DNA of 64,000 nucleotides. It comes from an uncultured Bacteroidota bacterium. Its GTDB lineage: Bacteria > Bacteroidota > Bacteroidia > Bacteroidales > DTGW01. Positions 4,054-47,892 of this stretch are shown here, piece after piece. The notes under the pieces are model-generated. The model was not told the DNA's origin. It worked only from the letters and a program-made list of their open reading frames with translations, and ran no database searches. Within the stretch, counting starts at the first letter, position 1. Each line of letters opens with the position of its first letter. The position numbers and the translations under genes are program-made. The stretch spans positions 3,628,424-3,692,423 of the forward strand of contig OY969556.1 of assembly GCA_963701015.1 (NCBI GenBank). Reading direction: 5' to 3'.

Positions 4054-4809
4054 ATGTTCTTCATCCTTTCAAAAATATTTTACTTCCTTGTAACGCCAAT
4101 TTTCTGGATATTCCTATTCTTTCTGCTTGCATTATTTTTGAAAAATCAAAAAACGAAAAAATGGTTTTTGGTTTTAGGCATGCTGTTTTTATTATTTTTT
4201 ACAAACGATTATATCTTTAATCGTGTTTGCCAAAAATGGGAATTACCTGTAAAATCGGCAAACGAAGTAAAATGTAAATACGATTATGGTATTGTTTTGG
4301 GAGGTATGGCTTCAATAAATACAAGGACGAAAAAAATGAAAATTTCGGAATCTATTGACCGGATTTTACAAGCTATAATTTTATATAAACAAGGCCGTAT
4401 AAGGAAAATTGTTATAACAAGCGGATCAGGAAATGTATTCAACCAAAAAGAAAAAGAAGCAATTATATTGAAAGATTATTGTGTGAAGTTTGGAATTGAT
4501 TCCAGCGATATAATTATAGAATCAAATTCGAGAAATACGCATGAAAATGCACTATTTACGATGAAATTATTGCATTGCGAAAATACAAAAGTACTGCTTA
4601 TAACTTCGGCATATCACATGCGGCGCTCAGCCGGATGCTTTAAAAAGGCTGGTTATATATTCGATATATATCCAACCGATTCTTATGAGTTTTCCTATTT
4701 AGGACCTGATGATTATTTTATGCCCAATAGCCAACCGCTTGAAAAATGGGGTGTTCTGATTAAAGAATGGATTGGTTTTGAAGTATATAAAATTGTGGGA
4801 TATATTTAG
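4054..4809 (+). CDS. DUF218 (YdcF/ElyC/SanA-like) membrane-anchored protein
   Basis: 251 aa with N-terminal TM helices, then a DUF218-like core (GIVLGGM ... ITSGSG ... ITSAYHMRRS). Confidence 0.75.
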   Translation: MFFILSKIFYFLVTPIFWIFLFFLLALFLKNQKTKKWFLVLGMLFLLFFTNDYIFNRVCQKWELPVKSANEVKCKYDYGIVLGGMASINTRTKKMKISESIDRILQAIILYKQGRIRKIVITSGSGNVFNQKEKEAIILKDYCVKFGIDSSDIIIESNSRNTHENALFTMKLLHCENTKVLLITSAYHMRRSAGCFKKAGYIFDIYPTDSYEFSYLGPDDYFMPNSQPLEKWGVLIKEWIGFEVYKIVGYI

Positions 4810-4904
4810 AATTGGTTATTAGGTATTAGGTGTTAAAATCGTTTAATAAAATATAAATATTTTCATTGTTTCAATTCGTTTAAACTTTTTAAATCGTTAA
4901 TTGT

Positions 4905-6089
4905 TTAAAAGCTATATTTCAACCTGAAATAAACCATATTTAAATTCAATTCCTGGTTATTTATTTTACCGCCAAATTTTTGAGCAATAAGCGATGCATC
5001 GAGGTTTTGCGAAAGTGAATAGGTAAGTGAAGGTCCAATATAAAAACCTTTTATACCGGGCAAAAACATTCCGGCCAAACTTCCGGTCAATAGTGGTGTT
5101 ATAGGATAACTTGCCTGCATCAATATATTATGTTTAACAAACGAAAGGTTCTTAACGGTCAATGGCGCACTATATAGCGATTCAAATGAAAAAGTTTCTG
5201 GATATTTCGCACCATCATATAGATATTCGGCCAACAACGAAAATGAATTCCCAAATGTATAATTAAAAGAAATTGAAGCCAATAAAACCCCTGTAGTATC
5301 ACTAAACTTTTTCTCAGGCTGAAAATAACTGATTTCGCCTCTGAAAGCTAAACTTTGAATTGCACCACTCCAACCAAAACCAGCTACATAATCAGTTTGA
5401 TTAAGTGTCCCTGCCAAAAACTGAAAATCGTAATCGAAAGCATTGAACTTATATAAGGCTGCAGCAGTAACTTGTTTGTCGCGGTTCATTTTCACGGCCA
5501 GTTCAGTAGATGAAACTTCTGAATTATAATATTGAAGCCTCAACGCATCACTCCCGGGACGCTCGACATAATCAACATCGAAAAACGAATATGCATTAAA
5601 AATGTCGTTTGGATTCCATACCAAAGTTTGTCCCCAATTTATACGCTGCCGCCCCAGCGTTGCATGAAATTTTCCTTTTTCATAAGCTGCCCATAACCTA
5701 TCAATTGTTGAATTTAAAACATATGAATTACCATCAGCCATGTTTTTGGTCAAATCCATAAACCCATTATCAGTTGCAAAACTTGCTGCGGTTGCAGAAT
5801 TGTTTGTAACATTTTCTTCCATGGATAAACGGTTGCGCATTTCTAAAGCCATAGTTAAACCTTCAGTCGGAAAGAATTTAAAATTTAAACGATTATGGAT
5901 AAGGTCACTAATTGTCCATTGCTTGTTAATACTATCAAACATGGCGCTTTGCATATCACTGGTATAACCACCGATTGTAAATTTATCACTTTTATCCTGG
6001 GCATTTATAATAGTAAAATTTAATGCTAGAATTATCAAAATAAGCAAATGTGCCGATTTGCTAATTATATATTTAATTTTGTTTCTCAT
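4905..6089 (-). CDS. Putative outer-membrane beta-barrel (porin-like) protein, last gene of the ABC/LolA-like locus
   Basis: 394 aa with a signal peptide. Alternating beta-strand-like pattern and a C-terminal ...YFRLKYSF with terminal aromatic residue, as in OM barrels. Confidence 0.55.
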   Translation of the reverse strand: MRNKIKYIISKSAHLLILIILALNFTIINAQDKSDKFTIGGYTSDMQSAMFDSINKQWTISDLIHNRLNFKFFPTEGLTMALEMRNRLSMEENVTNNSATAASFATDNGFMDLTKNMADGNSYVLNSTIDRLWAAYEKGKFHATLGRQRINWGQTLVWNPNDIFNAYSFFDVDYVERPGSDALRLQYYNSEVSSTELAVKMNRDKQVTAAALYKFNAFDYDFQFLAGTLNQTDYVAGFGWSGAIQSLAFRGEISYFQPEKKFSDTTGVLLASISFNYTFGNSFSLLAEYLYDGAKYPETFSFESLYSAPLTVKNLSFVKHNILMQASYPITPLLTGSLAGMFLPGIKGFYIGPSLTYSLSQNLDASLIAQKFGGKINNQELNLNMVYFRLKYSF

Positions 6090-6123
6090 AGTAGAATATA
6101 CAAATAAATTATTTGATATTTTT

Positions 6124-6168
6124 CATTATCACATTGAATAATTAGCATATTGAATCATTATCTAATTA
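6124..6168 (-). repeat. Word-repeat spacer S1: three tandem ~16-nt units that begin on the stop codon of the ABC ATPase gene
   Basis: Plus strand reads CATTATCACATTGAAT|AATTAGCATATTGAAT|CATTATCTAATTA. The final TTA is the reverse-complement stop of 6166..6867. Confidence 0.7.
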
Positions 6169-6867
6169 TTTAGTTTCATCCGTTGAGACCTTCCCATCTA
6201 CAAGCGTTATAACACGCCTGGCTTTTTTCACAACCCTGGGATCATGGGTTGAAAATATAAAAGTAATATTTTCATCAATGTTGAGCTTTTCCATTATATC
6301 TAACAGTTTTTCTGCCGATTTTGAATCAAGGTTTGCCGTAGGTTCGTCAGCAAGAATAAACTTTGGTCGCGATGCCAACGCGCGTGCAACCGCGACCCTT
6401 TGTTGTTGACCGCCAGAAAGCTTTGCCGGACGACTGTTCATTCTATCTCCCAATCCAACTGCTTTAAGTAATTCAGCACTGCGTTCTTCCTTTTCTTTTT
6501 TCGGCCAGTTTTGCAAAAACATAATAAACTCAACATTTTCGCGTGCTGTTAAAACCGGAATAAGGTTATACGACTGAAATACAAATCCAATATTATGCAT
6601 TCTGAAATCAATTAATTTAGAACTTTTCAAAGCACCAATATTTACACTGTCAATTTTAATTTCACCAGAAGTTGGGAAATCAATCCCACCAACCATATTC
6701 AAAAATGTGGTTTTGCCTGAACCAGAAGGACCCACGACTGCTGTAAATTCGCCTTGCTCAAACGAAATATTCAGATTTTCCAAAGCAATTACTTCGTTGC
6801 CATTTTCATGGTAAACCTTTGTTAATGAATTGGTTTCAATTATTTTATTTTCTTTAGCTGTTTCCAT
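6166..6867 (-). CDS. ABC transporter ATP-binding protein (MacB/LolD-like)
   Basis: Walker A GPSGSGKTT, ABC signature LSGGQQQRV, Walker B FILADEPT. Confidence 0.95.
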   Translation of the reverse strand: METAKENKIIETNSLTKVYHENGNEVIALENLNISFEQGEFTAVVGPSGSGKTTFLNMVGGIDFPTSGEIKIDSVNIGALKSSKLIDFRMHNIGFVFQSYNLIPVLTARENVEFIMFLQNWPKKEKEERSAELLKAVGLGDRMNSRPAKLSGGQQQRVAVARALASRPKFILADEPTANLDSKSAEKLLDIMEKLNIDENITFIFSTHDPRVVKKARRVITLVDGKVSTDETK

Positions 6868-6889
6868 TATTATTATTTTTTAATTGACT

Positions 6890-6934
6890 CATTAGCACAT
6901 TAACAAATTAGCACATTGTTTCATTAGCTCATTA
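6890..6934 (-). repeat. Word-repeat spacer S2, paralogous to S1, beginning on the stop codon of the FtsX permease gene
   Basis: Plus strand reads CATTAGCACATTAACA|AATTAGCACATTGTTT|CATTAGCTCATTA. The final TTA is the reverse-complement stop of 6932..8233. Confidence 0.7.
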
Positions 6935-8233
6935 TAACTTTCTTATAGCTTCCGACGGGTTTAATTTTAATGCCTTTCGGGCAGGAACAACCGCTGATAT
7001 AACACCTGCAATAATTACCATAATTACAATTTTGATATAAACATTAATATCGATATATGGATAAACCATAGAATTAAATCCAAAGCCTGCCATTCCTGAT
7101 TCAAACATAGATAAGTCGATTCCATGTTTGCCAAAATAGCTAACCAGCAACCACGACAAAAACATCCCTACTGCTGAACCTGTTAACATTAACAAAATAG
7201 TCTCAAGCATAATCATTGAGAAAATTCTTAGCCGGTTCATTCCTATTGCCATTAACATTCCAATTTCACGAACCCTTTCCAATACTGCCATTAACATGGT
7301 ATTTATAATTCCAAAGCTTAGAGCTAAGAAAATAATACTCATAAAAATATACAATAAATAATTCATCATACCATTCATTAAATCAAGTTCAGGCATAATT
7401 TCCTTCCACGATTCAATGCTTAATTGGGAATTGTTGAATTTATTTTTTAATGTTGAAATTAGTGCGACACTCTTGTTATCATCATAAACCGAAATGGCAA
7501 TTTCATGCGCGGTTTGCCTTGAAACCCCTATAAGTTGAGCTAAATCAGACTTACGGACAAAAACACTCATTCCGTCGAAAGTTGAATTGCTTGTTTTAAA
7601 AATTCCTATAACTTTAAAAGCCGCAGTGGTAATATTTCCTGAAATGGATTGCATTGTAATAACTACCTTCGAATGTAACTTCAATTTCAGTTTTTCTGCA
7701 ATTTTTTCACCTATTAATATGCCGTTTTTCCTGTTATCTGTAAAATAATCCCCTTTTTTTATAAATTGATATATACCGGTTACTTGTTTTTCCTTTTGTG
7801 GATCAATGCCATTGAGCATAATTCCCTGACCTCCATTTGCTGAATTGATCATACAAACTAATTTTAAGCGCACTGTATAAGCCTTAATTTCACTACAAGT
7901 ATCCAGTGTTGAAATAATTTCAGGCATATCGAAAATGGTGTCGTTTATTTCTTTGTTGCCTTTAAACAGTGAATTATGAATTTGAATATTTGACACTTCA
8001 TTTCCAATAGCCATCTGTAAACGCTGAATAATCATCCCGTTCATGAACGAAGTGAACCCAACTCCGCCAATTACACCAAATACTATAGCAAATATTATAA
8101 TCAGGCTCCGGCTTTTATTCCGCCAAATATTTTTCCAGGACAGGGATAATAAGCCCCACCAGGCCTCCCCAAAGGGGAGGAGTTTAAGACCATGCTTAAT
8201 GGTTGGATTATTCATGTTATTTTGTGCTATCAT
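6932..8233 (-). CDS. ABC transporter permease, MacB-like periplasmic domain plus FtsX domain
   Basis: 433 aa with WKNIWRNKSRS N-terminal motif, a TM helix, a large periplasmic domain and a C-terminal 3-TM FtsX region. The N-terminal ~25 residues are encoded by a GC-rich hairpin element, so the true start is uncertain. Confidence 0.85.
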   Translation of the reverse strand: MIAQNNMNNPTIKHGLKLLPFGEAWWGLLSLSWKNIWRNKSRSLIIIFAIVFGVIGGVGFTSFMNGMIIQRLQMAIGNEVSNIQIHNSLFKGNKEINDTIFDMPEIISTLDTCSEIKAYTVRLKLVCMINSANGGQGIMLNGIDPQKEKQVTGIYQFIKKGDYFTDNRKNGILIGEKIAEKLKLKLHSKVVITMQSISGNITTAAFKVIGIFKTSNSTFDGMSVFVRKSDLAQLIGVSRQTAHEIAISVYDDNKSVALISTLKNKFNNSQLSIESWKEIMPELDLMNGMMNYLLYIFMSIIFLALSFGIINTMLMAVLERVREIGMLMAIGMNRLRIFSMIMLETILLMLTGSAVGMFLSWLLVSYFGKHGIDLSMFESGMAGFGFNSMVYPYIDINVYIKIVIMVIIAGVISAVVPARKALKLNPSEAIRKL

Positions 8234-8285
8234 AAATTTTTTATTTTTATTTACCCTACCTGACGGGGAAGGTCGGGTGGGGCTT
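8151..8285 (-). repeat. GC-rich structured element spanning the junction of the two permease genes
   Basis: AAGCCCCACC (8151-8160) is the exact reverse complement of GGTGGGGCTT (8276-8285). Inner hairpins are CCTCCCC-AAA-GGGGAGG (8164-8180) and CCCTACCT...AGGTCGGG (8254-8277, 7 of 8 pairs). It stands out against the AT-rich background. Confidence 0.6.
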
Positions 8286-8287
8286 TC

Positions 8288-9502: not shown

Positions 9503-9541
9503 AGTAATTAGTGATTTGTGCACAGTGCTAAGTAAACCGTG

Positions 9542-9910
9542 CTATTTTTTAGACTTATAGTAATTTATTGTCCCGTTTATTAGTTTTTTACATTCAGTTA
9601 TAATCTCCAGCAATTCGTTCAATTCAGATTCATTAATGTATGTTTGATCAAAAGAAAGGTAAAGCTGTGTTTCCAATTCATATAATGAACCACGTGAGTA
9701 ATTGAGAAATTGAATTGTTTCATTTTTCTGCAACCGTCCAATTCCCTCTGCAATATTTGATGGGACAGAAACACATGATCTTCTCATTTGATTGGTCAAA
9801 CTATATATTTCTTCCTTTGGAAATTTTTTGGTAACGTTATACAACTTATTTACCAACAACCTGGATTTTTTCCAGACATCCATTTCAATATATGATTTAC
9901 TATTATCCAT
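9542..9910 (-). CDS. Four-helix-bundle protein (23S rRNA intervening-sequence protein family)
   Basis: 122 aa with family hallmarks LTNQMRRSCVSVPSNIAEG and SLYELETQL. Same strand as the host operon and wedged between its genes. Confidence 0.85.
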   Translation of the reverse strand: MDNSKSYIEMDVWKKSRLLVNKLYNVTKKFPKEEIYSLTNQMRRSCVSVPSNIAEGIGRLQKNETIQFLNYSRGSLYELETQLYLSFDQTYINESELNELLEIITECKKLINGTINYYKSKK

Positions 9911-9981
9911 TGCTATAATTATATTTTAAGATTTCTAAACTAAGTGCTCAGCACTAAGCACTATATTCTAGGCACTATACA

Positions 9982-11824: not shown

Positions 11825-11848
11825 CTAATTCAATTTGATAATGTGCTG

Positions 11849-11903
11849 ATTTGCTAATTTAAAAATTAACGCCCTATTACTTATTCCTTTTAAATTAGCA
11901 AAT
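11849..11903 (-). repeat. Hairpin spacer between tetR and the sigma gene, built from facing word units
   Basis: ATTTGCTAATTT (11849-11860) is the exact reverse complement of AAATTAGCAAAT (11892-11903), with a 31-nt loop. Outer GCTGA/TCAGC extension with a bulge. Confidence 0.6.
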
Positions 11904-11926
11904 TGGCATATTAAATAATCAGCAAA

Positions 11927-12529
11927 TTAATATATTGGTTTTTCAAGTCCTTTCAAAATTTTATCAACTATTTTTTCATCATCAAAATTTGGTGTAGATT
12001 GTATTATATTGATCATTAAACCATCCATAACCGAATTGGTATGAATGGCATCGGCTTTGGGATTTTTTGAACCATTCTTTTTATAATATTTTTCCAATAA
12101 ATCGAATTGCGAAATCATCATATTTTTATAATCCTTGTAAATAATTTCAGTGACTCCCGGTTGAAAAGCCAATGCAAAATACAATCTCCAAAAGTGTAAA
12201 TTGCTCCTCATGATTTCGAAAACTTTTTTAAAGATTTTACGAAATTGGATTGAAGTAAGCATCTCATCAGAAAGGCCTTTATCTAAAAGCTCATTAAATA
12301 TGTCGAAAAAATCTTTGAAACCATGATTTATGACAGCCTTTAAAAGTTCTTCCTTACTTTCGAAATAATTGTAGAGCAAACCTTTGGCAATTCCGGCATG
12401 TTGGGCTATCATACTTATGGACGCACCATGATAACCATAAGTTGCAAAAATCTCCAAAGCAGTTTCGAGGATCAACTCCCTTTTTTCCTGCTTTATTTCT
12501 TCAAATTGTACTTTCGTTTTTGGAGACAT
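11927..12529 (-). CDS. TetR/AcrR-family transcriptional regulator
   Basis: 200 aa with an N-terminal HTH (ALEIFATYGYHGASISMIAQHAGIAKGLLYNYFESKEEL). Confidence 0.9.
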   Translation of the reverse strand: MSPKTKVQFEEIKQEKRELILETALEIFATYGYHGASISMIAQHAGIAKGLLYNYFESKEELLKAVINHGFKDFFDIFNELLDKGLSDEMLTSIQFRKIFKKVFEIMRSNLHFWRLYFALAFQPGVTEIIYKDYKNMMISQFDLLEKYYKKNGSKNPKADAIHTNSVMDGLMINIIQSTPNFDDEKIVDKILKGLEKPIY

Positions 12530-12584
12530 ACTTTATTTAAATTTTAGAACCATGAATCAAGAACCAAGAAAATTAGTTAATTTT

Positions 12585-25795: not shown

Positions 25796-26353
25796 TTATA
25801 ACCATGAAATTATAAATTCTGTAATATTTTGATTTTTAGCTAATGATTTAGTTATTTCAACTTTTACACTTTTGCAACCCGATTTTTCGAGAGCCCTTTC
25901 CATCCAGCCTGCAATATTATGCTCAACAATTTCTTCAGGTTCAGGAAATTTTGTGATATGTAAAACCAAACCATTTTTTGAAGCATTTAAAACAACAATT
26001 TCTGAGGGTTGAAAATAAGTAGTAAAAACCCTTCCGGCACGTTCCATAATATATTTTGGAGAACCTAACTGGATAAAAAATTTATAAACGCCGGTCAAAG
26101 CCAAATCAGCACTAAAACGACCCATTGTACGCGCTGTTTGAATATCATCACCATTATAAAACACTTTACTTATGGTTTTCATTGGGATAACCAAACTATC
26201 CTGAATTGGATACCAATTATTTGTAAATATTAAGCCGCCCATTATTTTTTTTGAACTTTCCGGTAAAGCATCCAACCATTCTTTGTATTTTAGAGGGAAT
26301 TGTTTTTGAACAAATTCAGGAATTGATTTTACTGCAGTACCTTTAATTTCCAT
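25796..26353 (-). CDS. Uncharacterised 185-aa protein, tandem paralog A (resembles the DUF2378 / H-NOX-associated-like fold family)
   Basis: Clean ORF. The C-terminal pattern RAGRVFTTYFQPSE...HITKFPEP...IAGWMERALEKSGCKSVKVEITKS...EFIISW recalls DUF2378 as I remember it; not verified by search. Confidence 0.4.
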   Translation of the reverse strand: MEIKGTAVKSIPEFVQKQFPLKYKEWLDALPESSKKIMGGLIFTNNWYPIQDSLVIPMKTISKVFYNGDDIQTARTMGRFSADLALTGVYKFFIQLGSPKYIMERAGRVFTTYFQPSEIVVLNASKNGLVLHITKFPEPEEIVEHNIAGWMERALEKSGCKSVKVEITKSLAKNQNITEFIISWL

Positions 26354-26430
26354 AATTACAAATGCTTTAAATTTGAAATTCTTTGAAAATTAAAATTACA
26401 ACATAAAAGTATAAATGCGCATAAACTTTA

Positions 26431-26994
26431 TTACACATTTATCCATGAAATTATAAATTCAGTAATATTATCACTTTTTGCAAGTGATTTTGTAATTTCA
26501 ATTTTTATATTCTTACAACCTGATTTTTCAAGAGCAAGTTCCATCCAACCGGCAATATCATATTCAATAATTTTATCGGGTTCAGGAAATTTAGTAATAT
26601 GAAATATCAGGCCGTTTTTTGAAACATTTAAAACTGCTACCTCTGAAGGTTGAAAATAAGTTGTAAAAACCCTTCCAGCCCTTTCAATAATATATCGGGG
26701 GGAACCAAATTGGATGAAAAATTTATATATTCCTGATAAAGCCGATTCGGCATGAAACCTACCCATCAATTTTGCTGTCTTTTCATCATCGCCAGAATAA
26801 TAAACTTTGCTAATTGTTTTCATAGGAATTACCAACCCATCATTTAATTGATACCAATTGTTGGAAAAAATTACTCCCTTGAAAAGTTTTCGAGAAATTT
26901 CAGGAAGTTCCTCCAACCATTCATTTTGCCGGATTGGGAAATTTTTTTGTACAAATTCAGGTATAGATTTTAATGCAATCCCTTTAATTTCCAT
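26431..26994 (-). CDS. Uncharacterised 187-aa protein, tandem paralog B of 25796..26353
   Basis: Collinear with paralog A and shares long identical runs (MEIKG, KSIPEFVQK, LVIPMKTISKV, ERAGRVFTTYFQPSE, HITKFPEP, NITEFIISW). Confidence 0.4.
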   Translation of the reverse strand: MEIKGIALKSIPEFVQKNFPIRQNEWLEELPEISRKLFKGVIFSNNWYQLNDGLVIPMKTISKVYYSGDDEKTAKLMGRFHAESALSGIYKFFIQFGSPRYIIERAGRVFTTYFQPSEVAVLNVSKNGLIFHITKFPEPDKIIEYDIAGWMELALEKSGCKNIKIEITKSLAKSDNITEFIISWINV

Positions 26995-28270: not shown

Positions 28271-31200
28271 ATGAAAAAAATTGTAAGGCTAAGAACCTAT
28301 ATATTGTTCGCCTTGCTGGGGTTATCGACATATTCTTTGGCGCAAACTTCAATAATGCATGCTGAATATTTTTTTGACACTGATCCTGGAGTTGGAAAAG
28401 GAACAGCATTAACAATTACGCCAAACGATAGTATAAATTTAAATAAAAGTATAACCCTATCAGGTCTTAGCATTGGCCCTCACGAAATTTTTATTCGGTT
28501 TCAGAATAGTGGAAATTCCTGGAGCCTTTCTGAATCGCGATGGTTTAATGTAGTTGCAACACCAACATTCCCTTCGTATCAAATTACCGGAGGTGAATAT
28601 TTCTTTGATACTGATCCTGGCGTTGGAAAAGGAACTCCTATCGTCACAGGCACTTTAGATTCAGTATCAATCAATCCAAGTATTCCAATAACATCATTAC
28701 CAGTAGGCCCGCACAATTTATTTTGCAGGTTTAAGAATTCTAATGGAACATGGGGTGATTTTGATACCAAATCATTCGTAGTAATGAGCATTTCAAATAG
28801 TACATCAGCTAAATTGAATTATGGTGAGTATTTTATTGATTCTGATCCAGGGATGGGTAAAGCCACACCAATTACCTTTGTAAAAACCGACTCTTTAAAA
28901 TCTAATTTTGCAATTAATTTAGGCACTGGTTTAACAAATGGAGTACATAATATAACAATCCGTTTAAGAGATTCTATTGGAAAATGGACTCTGGCTGAAT
29001 CGAGGTTTTTCAATGTACTTCCAGCACCTGAAAAAACTGCTCCACTTGCTTCACTTGAATTCTTTTACGATAAGGATCCAGGCGTAGGTAATGGTTTTGT
29101 GCTACAATCTTTAGGTAATAAGGATTCAATAAATATAAATGCCCAGGCTTTGGTAAATAGCAGTTTAACCAGTGGTTCCCATATAATAATGATAAGGGCA
29201 AAAGATTCAATTGGTCGCTATAGTATGGTTAATGCAAAACAATTTTACATTTGCTCGGTTTTCCCTGTTGCCAACTTTACTGCAACATATGTGAGTTTCG
29301 ACAGCACAGTTAGCTTTACAAGCCAAACTACCGGAGCAGATGCTAATACTCAATATTATTGGGATTTTAATGGTGATGGTGCAAATGATAATTCTTTCCA
29401 AAATCCTGATTATAAATATACAAATCCAGGAGTTTATAATGTAAGGTTAATTACAACAAATGGAGGCGTTTGCGGTGATACCATTATTAAAAAAGTTATA
29501 GCAACAAATGATACCTGCCATTTAACTTCAGCATTTATTTTTCAACCGAAAGTAACTTCCAACGAAGTTGATTTTCAGGATCAATCATCTGGCAGTATTG
29601 GCTCGTATTACTGGGATTTTGGGGATGGATTTACTTCTACCCAGAAGAACCCTATCCATATTTATAAATTAGCCGGAAATTATCAGGTTAGTCTCGCCAT
29701 TAAAAATGGAAGTAACTCATGTACCGACTTTTCTTCTAAGGTAATTACAGTGGGTACAAGTGGTTGCCAGGCATCGTTTACAGATATTGTAGATACTACA
29801 AAAGCCGCATTTACAAATAATTCTTTGGGTGGTAGTGATTTAAGGTACTTCTGGTTCTTTGGTGATGGAAGTTATTCATTGGATGAAAACCCTTCGCATG
29901 TGTTCGCCAATAATGCTGAATACAATGTTTCTCTTACCATTTCGAAAGCTGATGGAACATGTAGCAGTCAAACAAATAAATATATTCAAATTGGTCAGGT
30001 AAAATGTAATGCTTCATTCACCTATTTTGTCGATTCTACTTCCAATTTGGTATATTTTTCTGATCAAATAGTTGGCCCTTCAACAAATCTGTTCTGGTCA
30101 TTTGGTGATGGTAAAAATTCGGTTCAAAATAATCCTACTCATGCTTATGCTCATCCGGGCTATTATACGGTTGGGTTAAATACTTTCAATGCAAATAATT
30201 ATTGTATGGATTATTACGAACAAACAATTTTGGTTGGTAATGCTAACAATGATTGTGTAGCTGATTTCATTTACCAGGCTGATACAACTTCAGGCAAAGT
30301 CAATTTTTATGACGCTTCTAAAGGTGATATTATTGGATATATTTGGAATTTTGGTGATAGTTATGAACTAGCCCAAAAGAACCCACAATATACATATGCT
30401 CCGGCAGGATATAAAAATGTTTGCTTAACGGTTGTAAATAGTAATGCTATTACCAGCTTCAAATGTAAACCAGTTTATTCTGGCCCAAATCCGATAAGGA
30501 ATTGTAAAGCCGATTTTACTTATACTATTGATTCGGCAAGTAATCATGGATACTTTAATGACTTATCGGTTGGCTTAAGCCCAACAAGTAGTGACAATAC
30601 TTGGAATTGGGATTTAGGAAATGGTATTAAAGCAACTACTCAAAACGGTGATATAACTTATGGTTCAAGTGGATATTATATTGTGAGTTTACGTGTTTCA
30701 AATTCAATCACCGGATGTTCTTCAAAAGCCATTAAAATTGTTGGTATTGGTAATACAAACAGGCCAATTAAAGCTGGATACGGATACGACGTAAAAACTT
30801 CGGGTACAAAAGCTGATGGTTATCCGGTTGATTTCACCGGAGCAGGAGTTGGTGACCATGCCAGGTTGCGCTGGGACTTTGGTGATTCCACAAGTTCGAG
30901 TAATTCCGACACAACTACCCTTACTCCAACACATTATTTCACCTTACCTGGCACCTATAATGTTTGTCTTACAATTGAAAACCAATTGACCGGTGATTCA
31001 GATGTATACTGTGAAAATGTTTCTACAAAAGTTTCATGTACGAATGATATTACACCACCTACAGTATATTGTAAAAACATAATTATTGGATTAAATGCTG
31101 CAGGTCAGGCTAATATAACACCGCAAATGGTTGATAGCTTAAGCTATGATAATTGTAGTAGTACTATAAAGTTGTCATTGGATAAAACAACATTTACGCA

Positions 31201-31573
31201 AGCCAATCTGGGCAATAACACTGTTAAATTAACAGTCACTGATAGTTCAAACAATGTTAGTTATTGCAATGCAAATGTATTGGTAACAAAGGGAACATTT
31301 ATTGCCCAAACTGTAATTCAGGATTTCAATATTTGGCCAAATCCAACAACCGATAATACAAATATCAGATATGTATTGAGTAAATCATCTTCAATAGAAA
31401 TATCAGTTGTTGATTTGCAAGGTAAAGTTGTTGACAATATTCTTCAAGCCAATAGAAATGCAGGTGAATATACATTTGTATGGAATAGCTCAAACATTGC
31501 CAAAGGCACTTATATTATAACCTTCAAAGGAAATGATGGAGTAATTGGTCGTAAAATGCTTATAAAACAATAA
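28271..31573 (+). CDS. Giant T9SS-secreted surface protein: four 77-aa N-terminal repeats, multiple PKD-like domains, a HYR-like domain and a T9SS CTD
   Basis: 1100 aa. Repeated ...FxFGDGxxSxxxNPxHxY... PKD signatures occur about 7 times. DITPPTVYC...DNCS is HYR-like. C-terminal WPNPTTDNTNIRY...GTYIITFKGNDGVIGRKMLIKQ is a type A CTD. Confidence 0.8.
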   Translation: MKKIVRLRTYILFALLGLSTYSLAQTSIMHAEYFFDTDPGVGKGTALTITPNDSINLNKSITLSGLSIGPHEIFIRFQNSGNSWSLSESRWFNVVATPTFPSYQITGGEYFFDTDPGVGKGTPIVTGTLDSVSINPSIPITSLPVGPHNLFCRFKNSNGTWGDFDTKSFVVMSISNSTSAKLNYGEYFIDSDPGMGKATPITFVKTDSLKSNFAINLGTGLTNGVHNITIRLRDSIGKWTLAESRFFNVLPAPEKTAPLASLEFFYDKDPGVGNGFVLQSLGNKDSININAQALVNSSLTSGSHIIMIRAKDSIGRYSMVNAKQFYICSVFPVANFTATYVSFDSTVSFTSQTTGADANTQYYWDFNGDGANDNSFQNPDYKYTNPGVYNVRLITTNGGVCGDTIIKKVIATNDTCHLTSAFIFQPKVTSNEVDFQDQSSGSIGSYYWDFGDGFTSTQKNPIHIYKLAGNYQVSLAIKNGSNSCTDFSSKVITVGTSGCQASFTDIVDTTKAAFTNNSLGGSDLRYFWFFGDGSYSLDENPSHVFANNAEYNVSLTISKADGTCSSQTNKYIQIGQVKCNASFTYFVDSTSNLVYFSDQIVGPSTNLFWSFGDGKNSVQNNPTHAYAHPGYYTVGLNTFNANNYCMDYYEQTILVGNANNDCVADFIYQADTTSGKVNFYDASKGDIIGYIWNFGDSYELAQKNPQYTYAPAGYKNVCLTVVNSNAITSFKCKPVYSGPNPIRNCKADFTYTIDSASNHGYFNDLSVGLSPTSSDNTWNWDLGNGIKATTQNGDITYGSSGYYIVSLRVSNSITGCSSKAIKIVGIGNTNRPIKAGYGYDVKTSGTKADGYPVDFTGAGVGDHARLRWDFGDSTSSSNSDTTTLTPTHYFTLPGTYNVCLTIENQLTGDSDVYCENVSTKVSCTNDITPPTVYCKNIIIGLNAAGQANITPQMVDSLSYDNCSSTIKLSLDKTTFTQANLGNNTVKLTVTDSSNNVSYCNANVLVTKGTFIAQTVIQDFNIWPNPTTDNTNIRYVLSKSSSIEISVVDLQGKVVDNILQANRNAGEYTFVWNSSNIAKGTYIITFKGNDGVIGRKMLIKQ
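28355..29280 (+). repeat. Four tandem 231-nt (77-aa) coding repeats with core EYF(F/I/Y)DxDPGxGxG
   Basis: The GAA/GAG codon of the EYF core recurs at 28364, 28595, 28826 and 29057, an exact 231-nt spacing. Confidence 0.85.
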
Positions 31574-31711: not shown

Positions 31712-31874
31712 CTTGAAAAAATAATATTGATAAATAAGTTTTAACCTTGAATCACTGGATTTGAAAACATATATAATTATACTTTTCAATTTATATTCTT
31801 CATTTTCCGTATCCCATTCATCGTTTTCCGTTTTCCAGTGTTCGTTCTAAGTTTTTTATTTTAGTTTATTCCAT

Positions 31875-31906: not shown

Positions 31907-33778
31907 ATGGCTGCAATGGAAAATAATAAATTATTCAATGAATTTCCGCCTGTTTCTTCTGAAAAATGGGAAGAAATTATCCAAGAAGATCTTAAAGGCG
32001 CTGACTACAACAAGAAACTTGTATGGAAAACAAATGAAGGAATACAGGTTAAACCTTACTACCGCTCAGGCGATATTGAAAAGTTAAGCCATTTAAAATC
32101 GGTTCCTAATGAATTCCCCTATGTCCGTGGAAATTTTGAAACCGGGAACAATTGGGAAATCCGTCAGGATGTTATTGTTTATAATATTGAACAGGCTAAT
32201 GCCGATGCAATAGAAGCCTTAAATAAAGGTGCATCGTCGATATGTTTCATGTCAGTGGAAAAAATAAATACCCAGGACGATTTTTCGAAATTGCTTAAAA
32301 ATATTCATTTTGGGTGCATCAACTTTAATATCAATTCATGCAGAAATGCCCCGAAATTCTTTAATTTTTTAGTTGAAGAAACAAAAATAAAGGCTTATGA
32401 TATTGCTTTAATGAAAGGTTCTATTGGATTTAATCCGTTGGGGATACTCACAAATTCAGGAAATTGGATCAATTCAGAAGAAGAAGATTTTAAAACTGCT
32501 ATAAATTATATAGAATTTGCTGCTAAAGCTTTGCCATATTACAGGGTTTTAAATGTAAATGGAAATAATTTTCAGGAATCAGGATCGTCAATTGTCCAGG
32601 AAGTTGCATTTTCATTGGCAATGGCAAATGAATACTTGTCAAAACTTACTGAATCAGGGCTTACCGTTGATACAATTGCCGCACGGATACAATTCAATTT
32701 GGCGACTAGTAGCAATTACTTTTTCGAAATAGCTAAAATTCGTGCTTTCCGATTATTATGGGCAAAAATTGTTGAAGCTTACCATCCAAAATCTGAGCAA
32801 TCGGCCAGGACATTTATTCATAGCACCACAGCAAAATGGAATATGGCTGTATATGATGCCTATGTTAATATACTCCGCTCAACAACCGAAACAATGAGCG
32901 CAGCTATTGGCGGAGCCGATTCAATATCAGTTAAAGCATTTGATGCTGTGTATAACAAACAAAATAGTTTTTCAAACCGCATAGCGCGAAATACTCAAAT
33001 TATTTTAAAGGAAGAAGCGTACTTTGAACATATTGTTGATCCGGCAGCCGGTTCATATTATATTGAAAATCTAACAGACAGTATTGCTGCAGAAGCATGG
33101 AAGTTGTTTCAAATTGTCGAATCCAATGGTGGTTATAGCAAAAGTTTTTTAAAGGGATTAATTCAATCCGAGATTGAAAAAGTAGCACAGAAGCAATTAA
33201 ACGATTTTACAAGCCGAAAGACTACAATATTAGGCGTTAACCAATATCCTAATTTTAATGAACAAGTTTTAAAAAATATTGACAGCGAAGTGTTTGAATA
33301 TTCTCAAAATATTGCTTCAACTACTATCGCAAAACCTTTAAAGAGGTTCCGTTTGGCTGAAATATTTGAAGAAGTCCGTTTAAAAACCGAAAAAAACGGC
33401 CAAAGGCCAAAAGTGTTTATGCTTACTATTGGCAACCTGGCAATGCGTTTGGCAAGATCACAATTTTCGAGCAACTTTTTTGCTGTTGCCGGATTTGAGG
33501 TTATTGACAACAATGGTTTTAAAACCGTTGATGATGGAGTTAAAGCAGCATTTACGGCAAATGCCGATATAATTGTTTTGTGTTCAAGTGATGATGAATA
33601 TCTTGCATTTGCACCTGAAGCTTTTGAAAAAATAGGCAACAAGGCCATTTTTGTAGTTGCTGGCACTCCTGCATGTTCGGAAGACCTTAAATCGAAAGGA
33701 ATTAAAAATTTCATCAATGTGAAATCGAATATTCTTGAAACACTGAAGGAATACCAGAAATTGCTTCAAATTGTATAG
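31907..33778 (+). CDS. mutA: Methylmalonyl-CoA mutase small (beta) subunit
   Basis: About 623 aa from MAAMENNKLF. Mutase-like core ([48 protein letters not shown]) but lacks the DxHxxG B12 motif, as expected for the small subunit. Confidence 0.85.
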   Translation: MAAMENNKLFNEFPPVSSEKWEEIIQEDLKGADYNKKLVWKTNEGIQVKPYYRSGDIEKLSHLKSVPNEFPYVRGNFETGNNWEIRQDVIVYNIEQANADAIEALNKGASSICFMSVEKINTQDDFSKLLKNIHFGCINFNINSCRNAPKFFNFLVEETKIKAYDIALMKGSIGFNPLGILTNSGNWINSEEEDFKTAINYIEFAAKALPYYRVLNVNGNNFQESGSSIVQEVAFSLAMANEYLSKLTESGLTVDTIAARIQFNLATSSNYFFEIAKIRAFRLLWAKIVEAYHPKSEQSARTFIHSTTAKWNMAVYDAYVNILRSTTETMSAAIGGADSISVKAFDAVYNKQNSFSNRIARNTQIILKEEAYFEHIVDPAAGSYYIENLTDSIAAEAWKLFQIVESNGGYSKSFLKGLIQSEIEKVAQKQLNDFTSRKTTILGVNQYPNFNEQVLKNIDSEVFEYSQNIASTTIAKPLKRFRLAEIFEEVRLKTEKNGQRPKVFMLTIGNLAMRLARSQFSSNFFAVAGFEVIDNNGFKTVDDGVKAAFTANADIIVLCSSDDEYLAFAPEAFEKIGNKAIFVVAGTPACSEDLKSKGIKNFINVKSNILETLKEYQKLLQIV

Positions 33779-34199
33779 AATAAAGAACAAGGAACAAAGA
33801 TGCACAATTTTCGAAATTTACATATTTGGGATAAAGCCAGGTTAATTGTAAAAGAAAGCTATCAATTAACAGATAAATTTCCTCAAACTGAAATTTGGGG
33901 ACTTACAAATCAAATTCGAAGAGCATCTATATCAGTGTCCTCCAATATTGCAGAAGGTTCTGGTAAAAGTTCTAACAAAGATTTTACCCGTTTTCTCGAA
34001 ATAGCTATTTCTTCTTGTTTTGAATTAGAAACTCAATTTATTCTTGCATTTGATTTAGGATATATTTTGGAAACCGAAATGTCAGGCATTTGTAATTCAT
34101 TACAAGAAGAACTAAAAATGATATATAATTTTATTCAAACATTACAAATAAAAAATTAAGTGAACATTCTTTACTCTTTGTTCCTTGTTCTTTATTCTA
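33776..34199 (+). repeat. IVS-like cassette: a perfect 25-bp inverted repeat bracketing the four-helix-bundle gene
   Basis: TAGAATAAAGAACAAGGAACAAAGA (33776-33800) is the exact reverse complement of TCTTTGTTCCTTGTTCTTTATTCTA (34175-34199). Confidence 0.9.
33800..34159 (+). CDS. Four-helix-bundle protein (23S rRNA intervening-sequence protein family)
   Basis: 119 aa with LTNQIRRASISVSSNIAEG and CFELETQF hallmarks. Paralog of 9542..9910. Confidence 0.85.
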   Translation: MHNFRNLHIWDKARLIVKESYQLTDKFPQTEIWGLTNQIRRASISVSSNIAEGSGKSSNKDFTRFLEIAISSCFELETQFILAFDLGYILETEMSGICNSLQEELKMIYNFIQTLQIKN

Positions 34200-37552: not shown

Positions 37553-37972
37553 TTATTTTTTATCAGGAGCGGGTGTGGCTGGTTTTGGTATAACCGTACC
37601 ATTAATTTTCAGAACTTGTACTGAAGGATCTCCATCGGAAGTTACAGTAATTTGTTTTTGAAAACCACCAGGTCTGTTTGCAGGGTTATAGGTAACTTTT
37701 ATTTCGCCCTTTTTACCAGGTAAAATTGGTTCTCTTGGCCAATCAGGTGTAGTACAACCACAGGAGGCCTGAACATTTTTTAAAATTAAAGGATCTGTTC
37801 CTTCATTTGTAAAATCAAAAACAAAAGTGGCGGGACCATCTGCTTCTTTAATCTGGCCAAAATCATGGCTTTCAGTCACAAATACAGCTTTACCTTTCTT
37901 TTGAACGGTCTGGCAGAATAAACTTCCGGCTATAAATGCCAGAATCATAGTTGTTGTAATAAACTTTTTCAT
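37553..37972 (-). CDS. DUF1573 domain-containing secreted protein
   Basis: 139 aa with a signal peptide. HDFGQIKEADGPATFVFDFTNEGTDPLILKNVQASCGCTTPDWPREPILPGKKGEIKVTYN is the characteristic DUF1573 pattern. Confidence 0.8.
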   Translation of the reverse strand: MKKFITTTMILAFIAGSLFCQTVQKKGKAVFVTESHDFGQIKEADGPATFVFDFTNEGTDPLILKNVQASCGCTTPDWPREPILPGKKGEIKVTYNPANRPGGFQKQITVTSDGDPSVQVLKINGTVIPKPATPAPDKK

Positions 37973-41000: not shown

Positions 41001-41243
41001 ATGGAAGAAATAAACGAACATCATGATAAAATCCAAAAACATCACGATGAACTTCAAAAACACCACGATTTAATTGAAAGACACCATAAATTACTTGAGC
41101 AGCACCACAAACAGTATGGTTATAAAAATAGTACAATTAAAGAAAGCCATGATAATTTAAAAGATAATCATGAAGATTTAAAAGAAGATCATAAGAATCT
41201 GAAAGATCATCATGAAGAAATTAAAAAGAAAAATGAAAATTAA
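41001..41243 (+). CDS. Small histidine-heptad coiled-coil protein (80 aa)
   Basis: HHDKIQK HHDELQK HHDLIER HHKLLEQ HHKQ ... SHDNLKD NHEDLKE DHKNLKD HHEEIKK: two blocks of four 7-residue repeats, each starting with His pairs. Has its own promoter-like box. Confidence 0.55.
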   Translation: MEEINEHHDKIQKHHDELQKHHDLIERHHKLLEQHHKQYGYKNSTIKESHDNLKDNHEDLKEDHKNLKDHHEEIKKKNEN

Positions 41244-41257
41244 TAAGACAATATGCC

Positions 41258-41312
41258 AATGTGCTAATTTGTCAATGATTCAATATGTCTTTAGCTAATG
41301 TGCCAATTAGTC
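41258..41312 (+). repeat. Word-repeat spacer following the His-rich ORF stop
   Basis: AATGTGCTAATTTGTC|AATGATTCAATATGTC|TTTAGCTAATGTGCC|AATTAGTC. Same core (AATGTGCTAAT) as spacers S1/S2 read in gene sense. Confidence 0.6.
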
Positions 41313-41425
41313 TATTATTCAATAATTCAATTTCATAGGTTAGCAGAAATATTTAATAGTTTCCTTTTGGGGGATATTCATTCAATGTACATTTATAAAT
41401 ATTCTTTTACATTATTTAATAGACA

Positions 41426-41454
41426 CATTTGCACATTGAATCATTAGCGAATTA
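41426..41454 (-). repeat. Word-repeat spacer starting on the purN stop codon
   Basis: Plus strand CATTTGCACATTGAAT|CATTAGCGAATTA, with the final TTA being the purN stop. Collinear with the last two units of S1/S2. Confidence 0.6.
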
Positions 41455-42473: not shown

Positions 42474-43721
42474 ATGGAATTAAAAAGGGTTGTAGTTACT
42501 GGGCTAGGTGCAATAACACCAATTGGTAAAACGGTTGAAGAATATTGGCAAAGTCTTTCAAATGGTCAGGGCGGGGCAGGTTTAATAACCCGTTTTGATG
42601 CCACTAAATTTAAAACCAGGTTTGCCTGCGAAGTAAAGAATTACGATCCGGGAACATATTTTGACAGGAAGGAAGCAAAAAAGCTTGATCCGTATGCACA
42701 ATTTGCTTTGATAGCAGCAGACGAGGCCATGAAAGACAGTGGCCTCGACTTATCTAAAATTAATTGCGACAAAGCAGGTGTTATTATTGCATCAGGAATT
42801 GGGGGTATTGACACTTTTATGCAGGAAGTTAAAGCTTATGTATTGGGTGATGGTACTCCAAAAATTAGCCCTTTCTTCGTTCCAAAAATGATTTGTGATA
42901 TTGCTGCAGGTCATATTTCCATGAAATATGGGTTCAGAGGCCCAAATTATGCAACAGTTTCAGCCTGTGCTTCCTCAACCCATGCATTAGTTGATGCTTT
43001 AACTTACATTCGATTAGGAAAAGCAAATTTATTTGTAGTTGGTGGCTCCGAAGCTGCCATAAATGAAGCTGCTATGGGAGGTTTTAATTCCATGCAAGCT
43101 TTATCTACAAATAATGAAAATTATGCAACTGCCTCACGTCCTTTTGACTTGACCCGTGATGGTTTTGTAATGGGTGAAGGTTCGGGAATTCTTATTTTTG
43201 AAGAACTTGAACATGCATTACAACGTGGTGCTAAAATTTATGCTGAAGTTGCCGGTGGCGGAATGTCAGCAGATGCTTATCATCTTACAGCGCCGCATCC
43301 TGAAGGGCTTGGTGCAATTTTAGTTATGAAAAACACTTTAGAAGATGCCAATCTGAAAGCTGAAGAGGTTGATTATGTAAATGTTCATGGAACTGCAACA
43401 CCACTCGGTGATATTGCCGAAACTAAGGCAATTAAGGTCGTTTTTGGTGAGCATGCTTACAACCTAAATATTAGTTCGACTAAGTCTATGACTGGTCATT
43501 TGCTTGGTGCTACAGGCGCTATTGAATCTATAGCATCAGTGTTGGCTATTAAAAATGGAATTATTCCTCCAACAATTAACCATACTACAATTGATCCTGC
43601 AATTGACCCACGGTTAAATTTAACTTTAAACAAAGCCCAAAAACGGGACATTAAAGTAGCCTTAAGCAATACATTTGGTTTTGGTGGTCACAATTCATCA
43701 ATTATTTTCAAAAAATATTGA
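42474..43721 (+). CDS. fabF: Beta-ketoacyl-ACP synthase II
   Basis: 415 aa with active-site region ATVSACASSTHAL, His motifs NVHGTATPLGD and KSMTGHLLGATG, and C-terminal NTFGFGGHN. Confidence 0.95.
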   Translation: MELKRVVVTGLGAITPIGKTVEEYWQSLSNGQGGAGLITRFDATKFKTRFACEVKNYDPGTYFDRKEAKKLDPYAQFALIAADEAMKDSGLDLSKINCDKAGVIIASGIGGIDTFMQEVKAYVLGDGTPKISPFFVPKMICDIAAGHISMKYGFRGPNYATVSACASSTHALVDALTYIRLGKANLFVVGGSEAAINEAAMGGFNSMQALSTNNENYATASRPFDLTRDGFVMGEGSGILIFEELEHALQRGAKIYAEVAGGGMSADAYHLTAPHPEGLGAILVMKNTLEDANLKAEEVDYVNVHGTATPLGDIAETKAIKVVFGEHAYNLNISSTKSMTGHLLGATGAIESIASVLAIKNGIIPPTINHTTIDPAIDPRLNLTLNKAQKRDIKVALSNTFGFGGHNSSIIFKKY

Positions 43722-44443
43722 TAGGTTTTGGATTCATAAGGTTTCTGTTTACATCAAATAAAAAGTACAACAAAAAACTTATTGAACTTTTAGGATTTTT
43801 TCCTAGGAACAGGAAAATATATGATTTGGCATTTGTACACCGATCTGCTTCTGTAATTTTACCCGATGGTTCCATTGTAAATAATGAAAGGCTTGAATTC
43901 TTAGGTGATGCAGTACTTGACGCAGTAATTGCCGATTATCTTTTCTCAAAATACCCCAACAACGACGAAGGGTTTCTGTCTAAAATGCGTTCGAAAATTG
44001 TTAAACGCAAACATCTTAATACTTTAGCCGATAAAATTGGTATTGAACAATTTATTGTTTCAAATTCCATTAACCAAAATGGTGGAAAATATATTTACGG
44101 GAATGCACTTGAAGCATTAATAGGCGCCATATATATTGATAAAGGTTATGATATTTCCCGTAAATTCATAATTAATAAAATGCTCGAATCAAATATAAAT
44201 TTAAGTGAATTAGAACATAAAGAGACTGATTTCAAAAGCCGGATGATTGAATGGTCGCAAAAAAGCCGTACCGAAATTAGTTTTGAGAATCAGGAAGAAT
44301 ACCCAATAAACGAACATACACCAATTTTTATTTCACGAATTATTGTAGCCGATAAAATTTTAGGGCAAGGGAAAGGATTTTCAAAAAAAGAAGCTGAACA
44401 AAATGCTGCTGAACAAGCATTTAAATCTATTCTGCCTTCTTGA
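43718..44443 (+). CDS. rnc: Ribonuclease III
   Basis: 241 aa, TTG start overlapping the fabF stop. Catalytic signature ERLEFLGDAVLD and a C-terminal dsRBD (GKGFSKKEAEQNAAEQA). Confidence 0.9.
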   Translation: MIGFGFIRFLFTSNKKYNKKLIELLGFFPRNRKIYDLAFVHRSASVILPDGSIVNNERLEFLGDAVLDAVIADYLFSKYPNNDEGFLSKMRSKIVKRKHLNTLADKIGIEQFIVSNSINQNGGKYIYGNALEALIGAIYIDKGYDISRKFIINKMLESNINLSELEHKETDFKSRMIEWSQKSRTEISFENQEEYPINEHTPIFISRIIVADKILGQGKGFSKKEAEQNAAEQAFKSILPS

Positions 44444-47833: not shown

Positions 47834-47892
47834 AAATTTAATTTTAGAGTCAAGAATCAAGAGTCAGGTACAATGAACAAATTATTGTATTC

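Follow-up and report, generated by a model that had tools for sequence, protein, structure and literature searches.

The 64-kb window analysed here (the whole stretch of DNA, to which all positions given without a handle refer) comes from a Bacteroidales metagenome-assembled genome of about 32% G+C and lies on a 4.47-Mb contig. Its minus strand carries an operon in which the open reading frame (ORF) of an FtsX/MacB permease (6932..8233) precedes that of an ABC ATPase (6166..6867). The spacers on either side of the ATPase gene, A (6124-6168) and B (6890-6934), are composed of short repeated words. A first-pass annotation of the window had reported both spacers and had listed, among several possibilities, that they might be footprints of cassettes resembling the intervening sequences (IVS) of rRNA genes; it is this connection that is examined in the present text. 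The letters that it quoted for the two spacers matched exactly on re-reading, and in both the terminal TTA of the plus strand is indeed the reverse complement of a TAA stop codon, that of the ATPase gene for A and that of the permease gene for B.

Spacers A and B in the window and in related genomes

The two spacers had been described as consisting of 16-nucleotide (nt) units. Period 16 was recovered by Tandem Repeats Finder (TRF), but the elementary unit is an octamer, AATnTGCn (AATGTGCT-like), as indicated by TRF and by a period scan, with 16 nt corresponding to two alternating octamer types; on 6890-6917, for example, TRF returned period 8 (CATTAGCA x3.5) beside period 16. In gene sense the units of module B read TAATGAGC TAATGAAAC AATGTGCT AATTTGTT AATGTGCT AATG, and those of module A TAATTAGAT AATGATTC AATATGCT AATTATTC AATGTGAT AATG. 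The period scan found four period-8 arrays in the window, all intergenic, compared with 0.4 in shuffled sequence. A repeat search assigned 6119-6168, 6885-6934 and 41405-41454 to one direct-repeat family, and paired 6898-6934 with 41241-41277 as inverted copies.

These words are too regular for a random AT-rich spacer, as had been claimed. When counted against 100 dinucleotide-preserving shuffles, AATGWGMTAAT had 5 matches in the window (0.52 expected) and AATGTGCTAAT with one mismatch had 13 (3.4 expected), with no shuffle reaching 5 or 13, respectively. The check proposed by the first-pass annotation, on motif frequency and distance to the upstream stop codon, was run within the window, where the motif proved enriched and mostly placed just past stops, about 10 of the 13 AATGTGCTAAT matches lying no more than 55 nt past the stop codon of a gene in the same orientation. 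The matches cluster at five places, namely spacers A and B and the stops of a tetR gene, of a small His-rich ORF and of purN, the latter ORF being confirmed as a formyl transferase. The three additional sites, which had also been pointed out, are thus real and share the same word family. They do not, however, present the same module: the tetR site is a hairpin, while the arrays at the His-rich ORF and at purN belong together as the arms of a single long-range inverted repeat, which lies between convergent genes. In gene sense the tetR-site arms extend over about 11888-11929 (upstream arm, hereafter L) and 11836-11864 (downstream arm, R), forming a 26-bp stem with a z-score of -5.4 on the plus strand and -3.4 on the minus strand (gene sense), and the site is conserved in L002 and L005 (L followed by a number being our handle for a locus in another genome or contig).

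Taken alone, A and B fold no better than shuffled sequences (z -0.3 and -0.8, respectively), have no dyad symmetry and contain no G+C-rich stem followed by a T-run of the kind found in intrinsic terminators. The earlier statement that the module has no stem and no terminator shape therefore holds for the two spacers, but not for the family to which they belong, whose members normally form a stem of about 26 bp with an inverted partner array.

The nature of B became apparent when it was compared with the orthologous operons of relatives that share 98% to 85% ATPase identity with the window. In L002 (ATPase 98% identical) the spacer between the permease and ATPase genes holds an ORF of PF05635, a four-helix-bundle protein (23S rRNA IVS protein, Avd-like; hereafter IVP), preceded by AATATGCC/AATGTGCC words and followed by ATTGGCAC words. 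L210 (87%) presents the same arrangement, with a PF05635 ORF between word arms, and in L209 (87%) the spacer is empty, with only 4 nt (TGATTTTATG). In the window neither A nor B encloses an ORF, and B has no partner arm. The B-site IVPs of L002 and L210 match PF05635 and are 79% identical to each other and 23% identical to the IVP of the other cassette, meaning that they are orthologous and that the cassette is therefore older than the split of these lineages.

Furthermore, the ATPase of the window retains part of such a cassette. All seven orthologous ATPases examined start with M[NK]IIET. The ATPase of the window starts with METAKENKIIET, that is, METAKENK followed by IIETNSL, and the B-site IVPs start with METQKENKIL (L002) and MESIKENKIL (L210). 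The junction seen in the DNA (ATGGAAAC..AAAGAAAATAA.ATA.TTGA) agrees with the protein fusion and falls within an ATnnTTGA microhomology common to IVP and ATPase. The A-rich leader, which by position links the L arm to the start codon taken from the IVP, finds its best sequence match in a stretch downstream of the L002 IVP ORF, AATGTGCTAATGTGTCAATTAAAAAAT. Because the first codons of an IVP now run in frame into ATPase codon 3, B is demonstrably a true deletion footprint of an ORF-bearing IVS-like cassette. The possibility raised by the first-pass annotation is thus strongly supported for this spacer, both by the orthologous PF05635 ORF in L002 and L210 and by the inherited start and 8-9 codons.

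At the same junction, the end of the permease gene with its stop (AAAACTTTGAT, 11 nt) apparently occurs on both sides of the B-site cassette (L210:2520-3005, L002:5415-6005) and once at the empty site (L209:2985-3005). It could be a target duplication at this cassette, no such signal being present at 48 other cassettes.

For A, four loci (the window, L002, L003 and L005) have an array past the ATPase stop, and in all four R-type words (ATTAGCAA ATCGGCAC ATT...) are found within the first codons of the next gene; L209 and L211 have neither the array nor R words in the N-terminus of the next gene. In the window the next gene is a 394-aa gene (4905..6089, start codon 6087-6089) that holds the R arm in the n-region of its signal peptide, such that the start codon lies in the loop and the R words are translated. 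The A site of L002, with arms of 6 and about 10 units, folds with -46.7 kcal/mol (z -4.4), that of L003 reaches z -2.4 and that of the window has lost its stability (the z of -0.3 given above). Considering the R words in the next gene and the folds of the relatives, the comparison of these loci establishes A as half of a hairpin and not a free-standing direct repeat: it is the L arm, with the R arm absorbed into the signal-peptide coding region and the pairing decayed in the window. The term "footprint of IVS-like cassettes" consequently applies to A in a broader sense only.

The junctions of this operon turn over fast, and unit numbers vary between relatives. The four junctions have, depending on the relative, no array, arrays of other words (TTGGTGA, AACCAGG, GGACGTGAAA, AGCCTAA, CTAACAA, AATAATC), hairpins or full cassettes. 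Two junctions of L002, the 98% relative, do not agree with those of the window. In L209 the same operon has array-free spacers of 4 and 19 nt, and the corresponding positions of L211 and L007 are taken by unrelated sequence or other word families. Arms may also change their word family jointly, as seen in cassette 1 of the window (Table 1) and its orthologues, which carry TAGTGC/GCACTA words in four genomes and TAGTTG/CAACTA-type words in three. In L003 (3000-3410) a positionally conserved IVP ORF is cut to 100 aa, with out-of-frame remains still recognisable downstream, and the cassette ORF was therefore caught decaying. The permease-permease spacer of the window (8234-8287) contains a G+C-rich segment, GCCCCACCCGACCTTCCCCGTCAGGTAGGG, unusual at 32% G+C, and L002 has a AATGTGCT-type array in its place.

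IVP genes, arm period and octamer arrays beyond the operon

A set of 80 PF05635 loci was collected from GTDB genomes, mostly of Bacteroidota, of which 70 were usable. Inverted arms were detected at 49 of these 70 loci, compared with 5 of 208 mismatched-pair controls and none of 70 shuffled controls, with L arms being G+T-rich and R arms A+C-rich. Heptamer or octamer arrays occur on both sides of nearly all IVP loci, and in 14 of the 23 clearly periodic ones the stop of the upstream ORF lies at or within the arm. The best period was 7 in the IVP1-like set (44/46 upstream and 35/38 downstream arms). The IVPs associated with octamers are a distinct group. Five IVPs beside AATGTGCY arms are 46-78% identical to one another and about 18% identical to the IVP1-like set, and the eight IVPs with AATGTGCY-type arms form a pure neighbour-joining clade in which period 8 is the best in seven. 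Three of the eight (Ekhidna, Carboxylicivirga and Mucilaginibacter) had been fetched as a prospective test, which gave clear period-8 arms in two, the third (L212) being too short to call. The purity of the octamer-arm clade establishes that ORF and arms travel together.

IVPs from cyanobacterial and Cytophagales plasmids (Nostoc, Bernardetia), which have period-7 arms made of pure heptamer arrays, are the sister group of the octamer clade in the neighbour-joining tree, with 35-46% global identity to the octamer group. A protein-identity threshold for period 8 was considered and rejected because it is not clean, these period-7 plasmid IVPs being 43-48% identical to the octamer-type IVP L002b by tblastn, so that only the tree separates the two types.

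The positions of the cassettes suggest that they prefer tightly coupled stop-start junctions. In many Flavobacteriaceae (e.g., L011, L012, L018, L023) a cassette splits metH, with the L arm giving the stop and the R arm encoding the first residues of the downstream fragment; in L096, L212, L214 and L215 cassettes lie between the scoA and scoB CoA-transferase subunit genes; and cassette 2 of the window is placed exactly between two methylmalonyl-CoA mutase subunit genes. Stops are present in at least two frames in 44 of 59 L arms and are absent from 27 of 59 R arms, and all-frame stops hold for AATGTGCT and many heptamer L arms. The provision of stops in all three frames was nevertheless rejected as a general reason for the arrays, since it fails for the commonest octamer, AATGTGCC, and the comparison of L with reverse-complemented R arms gave p = 0.26. 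In L219 (Anabaena cylindrica plasmid NC_019772.1, 155585-155932) a PF05635-type four-helix-bundle gene is found between cas2 and cas1, with heptamer-like words downstream.

Octamer arrays were also searched for in metagenomes. A scan for AATRTGCYAATRTGCYAAT recovered at least 120 loci, with 154 AATRTGCY arrays among the matches listed, to which all figures in this and the next paragraph refer. The contigs range from 29% to 53% G+C and include human-gut contigs. An inverted partner array lies downstream of 75 of the 154 arrays and upstream of 2, while 54-60 are solo; the hairpins have a median stem of 26 bp, a median loop of 45 nt and a mean free energy of -43.5 kcal/mol. As many as 29% of the arrays begin no more than 9 nt from the stop codon of an ORF of 80 codons or longer that runs in the same direction, a placement shared by 2.9% of random positions, and in the commonest phase the AA of TAA doubles as the start of the first AAT of the array. 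Solo arrays directly past a stop are L in 18 cases and R in none, and those just before a start are R in 18 and L in 7. The architecture of these elements, their L-to-R polarity and their abutment on stops and starts are thereby established.

A PF05635 IVP is the only ORF tied to the octamer arrays, with no dedicated transposase (RAYT or insertion sequence type) found beside them; it is present in 3 of the 120 loci, in all of which it touches the arrays as L and R arms. The absence of a T-run, noted earlier for the spacers, extends to the family hairpins, TTTT following the stem in 10% of them versus 4% of the background. The commonest octamer, AATGTGCC, contains neither a stop codon nor TAATG. 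Many AATGTGCC hairpins (L089-L208, e.g., L100, L104, L115, L124, L135, L154, L165), mostly from the human gut, share the loop motif TTGGCTGCGC[AT]AT...GCCGCAGG, a likeness which suggests that they may constitute one dispersed element family with no Rfam match. No Rfam family besides tRNA was detected in the window or in ten hairpin-bearing loci, and no rRNA in the window.

IVS-like cassettes and competing explanations

A and B are in all likelihood the decayed upstream arms of IVS-like hairpin cassettes, and not a stand-alone 3'-end or coupling signal. These cassettes are a widespread and little-described element of Bacteroidota. In their layout, the stop of gene 1 is followed by an (AATGTGCY)n L arm, a loop, an (RGCACATT)n R arm and the start of gene 2. 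The loop is either short or made of an A-rich leader plus a PF05635 ORF, with ORF and arms inherited as one unit, and ORF-less hairpins and single arms represent decay products or, possibly, non-autonomous copies. As cassettes would occupy junctions of co-translated genes that are only a few nt long, an arm would necessarily abut the stop codon, and a TAAT at the octamer start could even share bases with it. For B, the ancestor carried an ORF-bearing cassette between the permease and ATPase genes. A microhomology deletion then took out the body of the ORF together with the R arm and the original ATPase start, leaving the L arm on the permease stop, and the leader, the ATG and the first 8-9 IVP codons as the beginning of the ATPase gene. 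When transcribed, the stems of about 26 bp of intact members may be substrates of RNase III, which would cut the operon RNA at the junction; for the IVS carried in the rRNA of Coxiella, Leptospira and Salmonella, experiments have proven such cleavage. The decayed arms of the window probably do little beyond giving the ATPase its leader and start codon.

Several observations weigh against this explanation, or against parts of it. More than 95% of the listed octamer-array loci (117 of 120) have no IVP ORF; it could be the arrays that are primary, the ORF being a passenger carried now and then. The array past the ATPase stop has kept its word pattern across lineages with 92-98% ATPase identity, a persistence compatible with some function. 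At the B site of L002 a run of N interrupts the cassette, so that its R side is seen only in part. The lack of a target-site duplication signal across the 48 cassettes mentioned above leaves a transposition mechanism unsupported. As for the stems, there is no sign of selection for pairing in the sense RNA, the wobble asymmetry of 59 IVP stems going in the wrong direction (68 G.U versus 103 A.C on the sense strand, p = 0.009). The RNA stability of ORF-less hairpins has no strand bias relative to the conserved loop motif either (11 versus 12). Since both tests are unsupportive, what keeps the arms paired may be a DNA-level process or a copying mechanism and not RNase III function.

It could be argued instead that the arrays are a functional single-stranded RNA element, (AAUGUGCU)n, serving as binding sites for a protein or ribonuclease or as a UAAUG stop-start relay that couples cistrons, an explanation that we regard as improbable and that the data do not call for. 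The strict orientation of solo arrays directly past stops (18 versus 0) would fit it, and so would the array past the ATPase stop, whose words keep their pattern in the window and in L002, L003 and L005 despite sequence drift; yet L209 has the operon without arrays, L211 and L007 have unrelated sequence or other words, and arrays turn over at 98% ATPase identity. Three consecutive TAATG overlaps do chain mini-ORFs in B from the permease stop to the ATPase start, but B came from a deletion inside a cassette, and AATGTGCC, the commonest variant, offers neither stop nor TAATG; the relay is therefore no family property and was rejected as a by-product of the word. Regarding sequence-specific binding, the heptamer arrays of Beggiatoaceae have been proposed as S1, Csp or CsrA sites (PMC4679880), but the many unrelated word families seen at equivalent positions argue against one such binder.

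Far less probable is microsatellite-like slippage in AT-rich intergenic DNA, in which case the arrays would be unrelated to cassettes and their likeness compositional. Unit numbers do vary among relatives, and tandem heptamers are over-represented in some bacterial genomes according to a survey (Mrazek 2007) as cited in PMC4679880, but slippage alone would account neither for motif counts above those of dinucleotide-preserving shuffles nor for the same words in contigs of 29-53% G+C, the strict L-to-R polarity (75 versus 2) and the physical tie of arrays to one IVP clade, and the IVP-ATPase fusion proves the cassette origin of B. Equally hard to credit are DNA-level sites (TetR-family operators, nucleoid-protein sites, terminators or attenuators). 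Evenly spaced words do recall iterons or arrays of operators, the operon is headed by a tetR gene and hairpins do occur at gene ends. Against this, the same words accompany unrelated genes across many taxa, dyad symmetry is lacking in A and B, TTTT follows so few of the family hairpins, and by inspection the words do not match the Bacteroidota -7 box (TAnnTTTG).

The IVS-like cassettes are best compared with the 23S rRNA IVS of Coxiella burnetii, Leptospira and Brucella, with which they share the PF05635 cargo, the long terminal inverted repeats around a leader plus ORF, and a decay-prone ORF (truncated in L003 and lost entirely from one site of the window). In Coxiella, RNase III cuts the 28-bp stem formed by the terminal repeats of the IVS, which also has an S23p (PF05635) ORF and, upstream of this ORF, tandem GACAGAT heptamers that differ in copy number between strains (PMC4990558), a feature paralleled by the short tandem direct repeats of the 5' arms (octamers in A and B), which are likewise variable in copy number. 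The terminal stem itself is decayed in A and without a partner in B, and is formed by their orthologous and paralogous copies in L002 and at the tetR site. In contrast to the rRNA IVS, which lie in helix 25 or 45 of the 23S rRNA gene, A and B are located between protein-coding genes and the cassettes at operon stop-start junctions or in split genes (metH); the arms consist wholly of 7- or 8-nt words, and in the octamer family ORF-less hairpins and single arms far outnumber ORF-bearing copies.

A second resemblance is to the short tandemly repeated repetitive (STRR) sequences of cyanobacteria and to TAACTGA heptamer arrays. The latter occupy intergenic regions of Beggiatoaceae, Cyanobacteria and five Bacteroidetes, where they are oriented and in some cases run into a stop codon, and their function is given as unknown (PMC4679880). 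Common to both are short non-triplet intergenic words oriented relative to genes, some on the upstream stop or just before starts, and a patchy taxonomic spread suggesting horizontal transfer. A and B differ from these heptamers in having period 8 (or 16) instead of 7, in forming inverted L/R pairs of strict polarity, and in being tied to a PF05635 clade; as judged from a term search of its text, PMC4679880 does not seem to connect its repeats with IVS proteins.

The elements also recall repetitive extragenic palindromic (REP) sequences, the bacterial interspersed mosaic elements built from them, REPIN-RAYT systems and miniature inverted-repeat transposable elements, in being abundant, imperfect intergenic palindromes, often right past stops inside operons, with few copies flanking a small ORF, many ORF-less, and a rapid turnover among strains. 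They depart from them in encoding a four-helix bundle and not an IS200/IS605-type transposase, in having no general target-site duplication, and in possessing tandem-word arms in place of a unique palindrome, with several word families per genome. Finally, the IVP ORFs match the bAvd-like Pfam family as well as PF05635. In diversity-generating retroelements, Avd is the accessory protein, a pentamer that binds nucleic acids and acts together with a reverse transcriptase. Unlike in these retroelements, no reverse transcriptase, template or variable repeat accompanies any cassette examined, and the word variation is not adenine-specific.

In the literature covered, which is incomplete, no paper was found that links such arrays to PF05635 genes outside rRNA or that names the octamer strings. 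The interest lies in the class that the remnants reveal, namely IVS-like elements resident in operons, whose arms are tandem words, whose L-to-R polarity is strict, whose arm period is clade-specific and which have many ORF-less derivatives. A wider and much more tentative proposal is that PF05635 IVPs and tandem-word arms together make up an unrecognised class of elements in Bacteroidota, Cyanobacteria and beyond, residing at stop-start junctions and in rRNA helices. The protein clade would fix the arm period (7 or 8 nt) since an Avd-like oligomer would bind, copy or maintain the arms, and ORF-less hairpins and solo arrays, the five sites of the window included, would be non-autonomous derivatives. 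If true, it would explain both the origin of rRNA intervening sequences and the enigmatic heptamer arrays of Cyanobacteria, Beggiatoaceae and Bacteroidetes, which may connect to IVS cargo genes.

The origin and mobility of the Coxiella IVS are stated as unknown, and the origin, spread and role of bacterial rRNA IVS, together with those of S23p ORFs, have been open since about 1990 (PMC4990558). These questions become testable with the same kind of element available in large numbers outside rRNA, where filled, empty and decayed states at one orthologous junction provide natural before-and-after comparisons, and where an IVP clade co-varying with arm period provides a concrete binding hypothesis. 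There is also a consequence for annotation, as arms can donate stops, starts and N-terminal residues to host genes, as seen in the ATPase, in the signal peptide of the outer-membrane protein and in split metH.

Features of the window

The features discussed above, together with the two intact cassettes and the RNase III gene, are listed in Table 1.

Table 1. Arrays, cassettes and associated features of the window
Feature	Position	Strand	Description
Module A	6124..6168	-	Degenerate L arm beginning on the ATPase TAA stop
Downstream (R) arm remnant of A	6044..6066	-	AATTAGCAAATCGGCACATTTGC in gene sense, translated as ...ISKSAHL...
Module B	6890..6934	-	Solo upstream (L) arm of about 5.5 octamers, beginning on the FtsX permease TAA
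A-rich leader	6868..6889	-	AGTCAATTAAAAAATAATAATA; now ahead of the ATPase start codon; aligned with L002 and L210
First 9 ATPase codons (METAKENKI)	6841..6867	-	N-terminus of the lost IVP, in frame with ATPase codon 3; 27 nt counted from the start codon
ORF-less hairpin	11836..11929	-	Between the tetR stop (11927-11929) and the sigma-factor start (11824)
L-type array	41241..41310	+	Begins on the TAA of the His-rich 80-aa ORF; AATATGCC AATGTGCT AATTTGTC AATGATTC AATATGTC ...
L-type array	41405..41454	-	Begins on the purN TAA; on the plus strand, inverted partner of 41241-41310
Intact cassette 1	9524..9981	-	PF05635 ORF 9542..9910; L arm 9911-9981 (TAGTGC words), R arm 9524-9541 (GCACTA words)
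Intact cassette 2	33776..34199	+	PF05635 ORF 33800..34159; perfectly complementary 25-nt arms, 7-nt AACAAGG words
rnc (RNase III)	43718..44443	+	Pfam Ribonuclease_3 + dsrm

Cassette 1 is located between a LolA-like gene and the first permease gene and has orthologues in L002, L003, L005, L007, L209 and L210. A segment of its IVP coding region (9648-9672) is 96% reverse-complementary over 25 nt to 37880-37904, within a DUF1573 gene (37553..37972), which is unlikely to be due to chance.

Other 7-nt word arrays occur at gene boundaries of the window, namely at 4807-4837 (TTAGGTA), 12546-12570 (TTGGTTC), 31797-31846 (CGTTTTC) and 47846-47866 (TTGACTC), the first of which begins on the TAG stop of a DUF218 gene. 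The His-rich ORF at 41001-41243 (80 aa) is itself made of 21-nt tandem repeats with HHD/HHK motifs and has no Pfam match. Repetition of other kinds is found at 25796-26994, where two tandem paralogous genes (185 and 187 aa) share 71-79% DNA identity with a spacing of 641 nt, and at 28363-29097, where a 231-nt repeat is present in four copies within an 1100-aa ORF (28271..31573).

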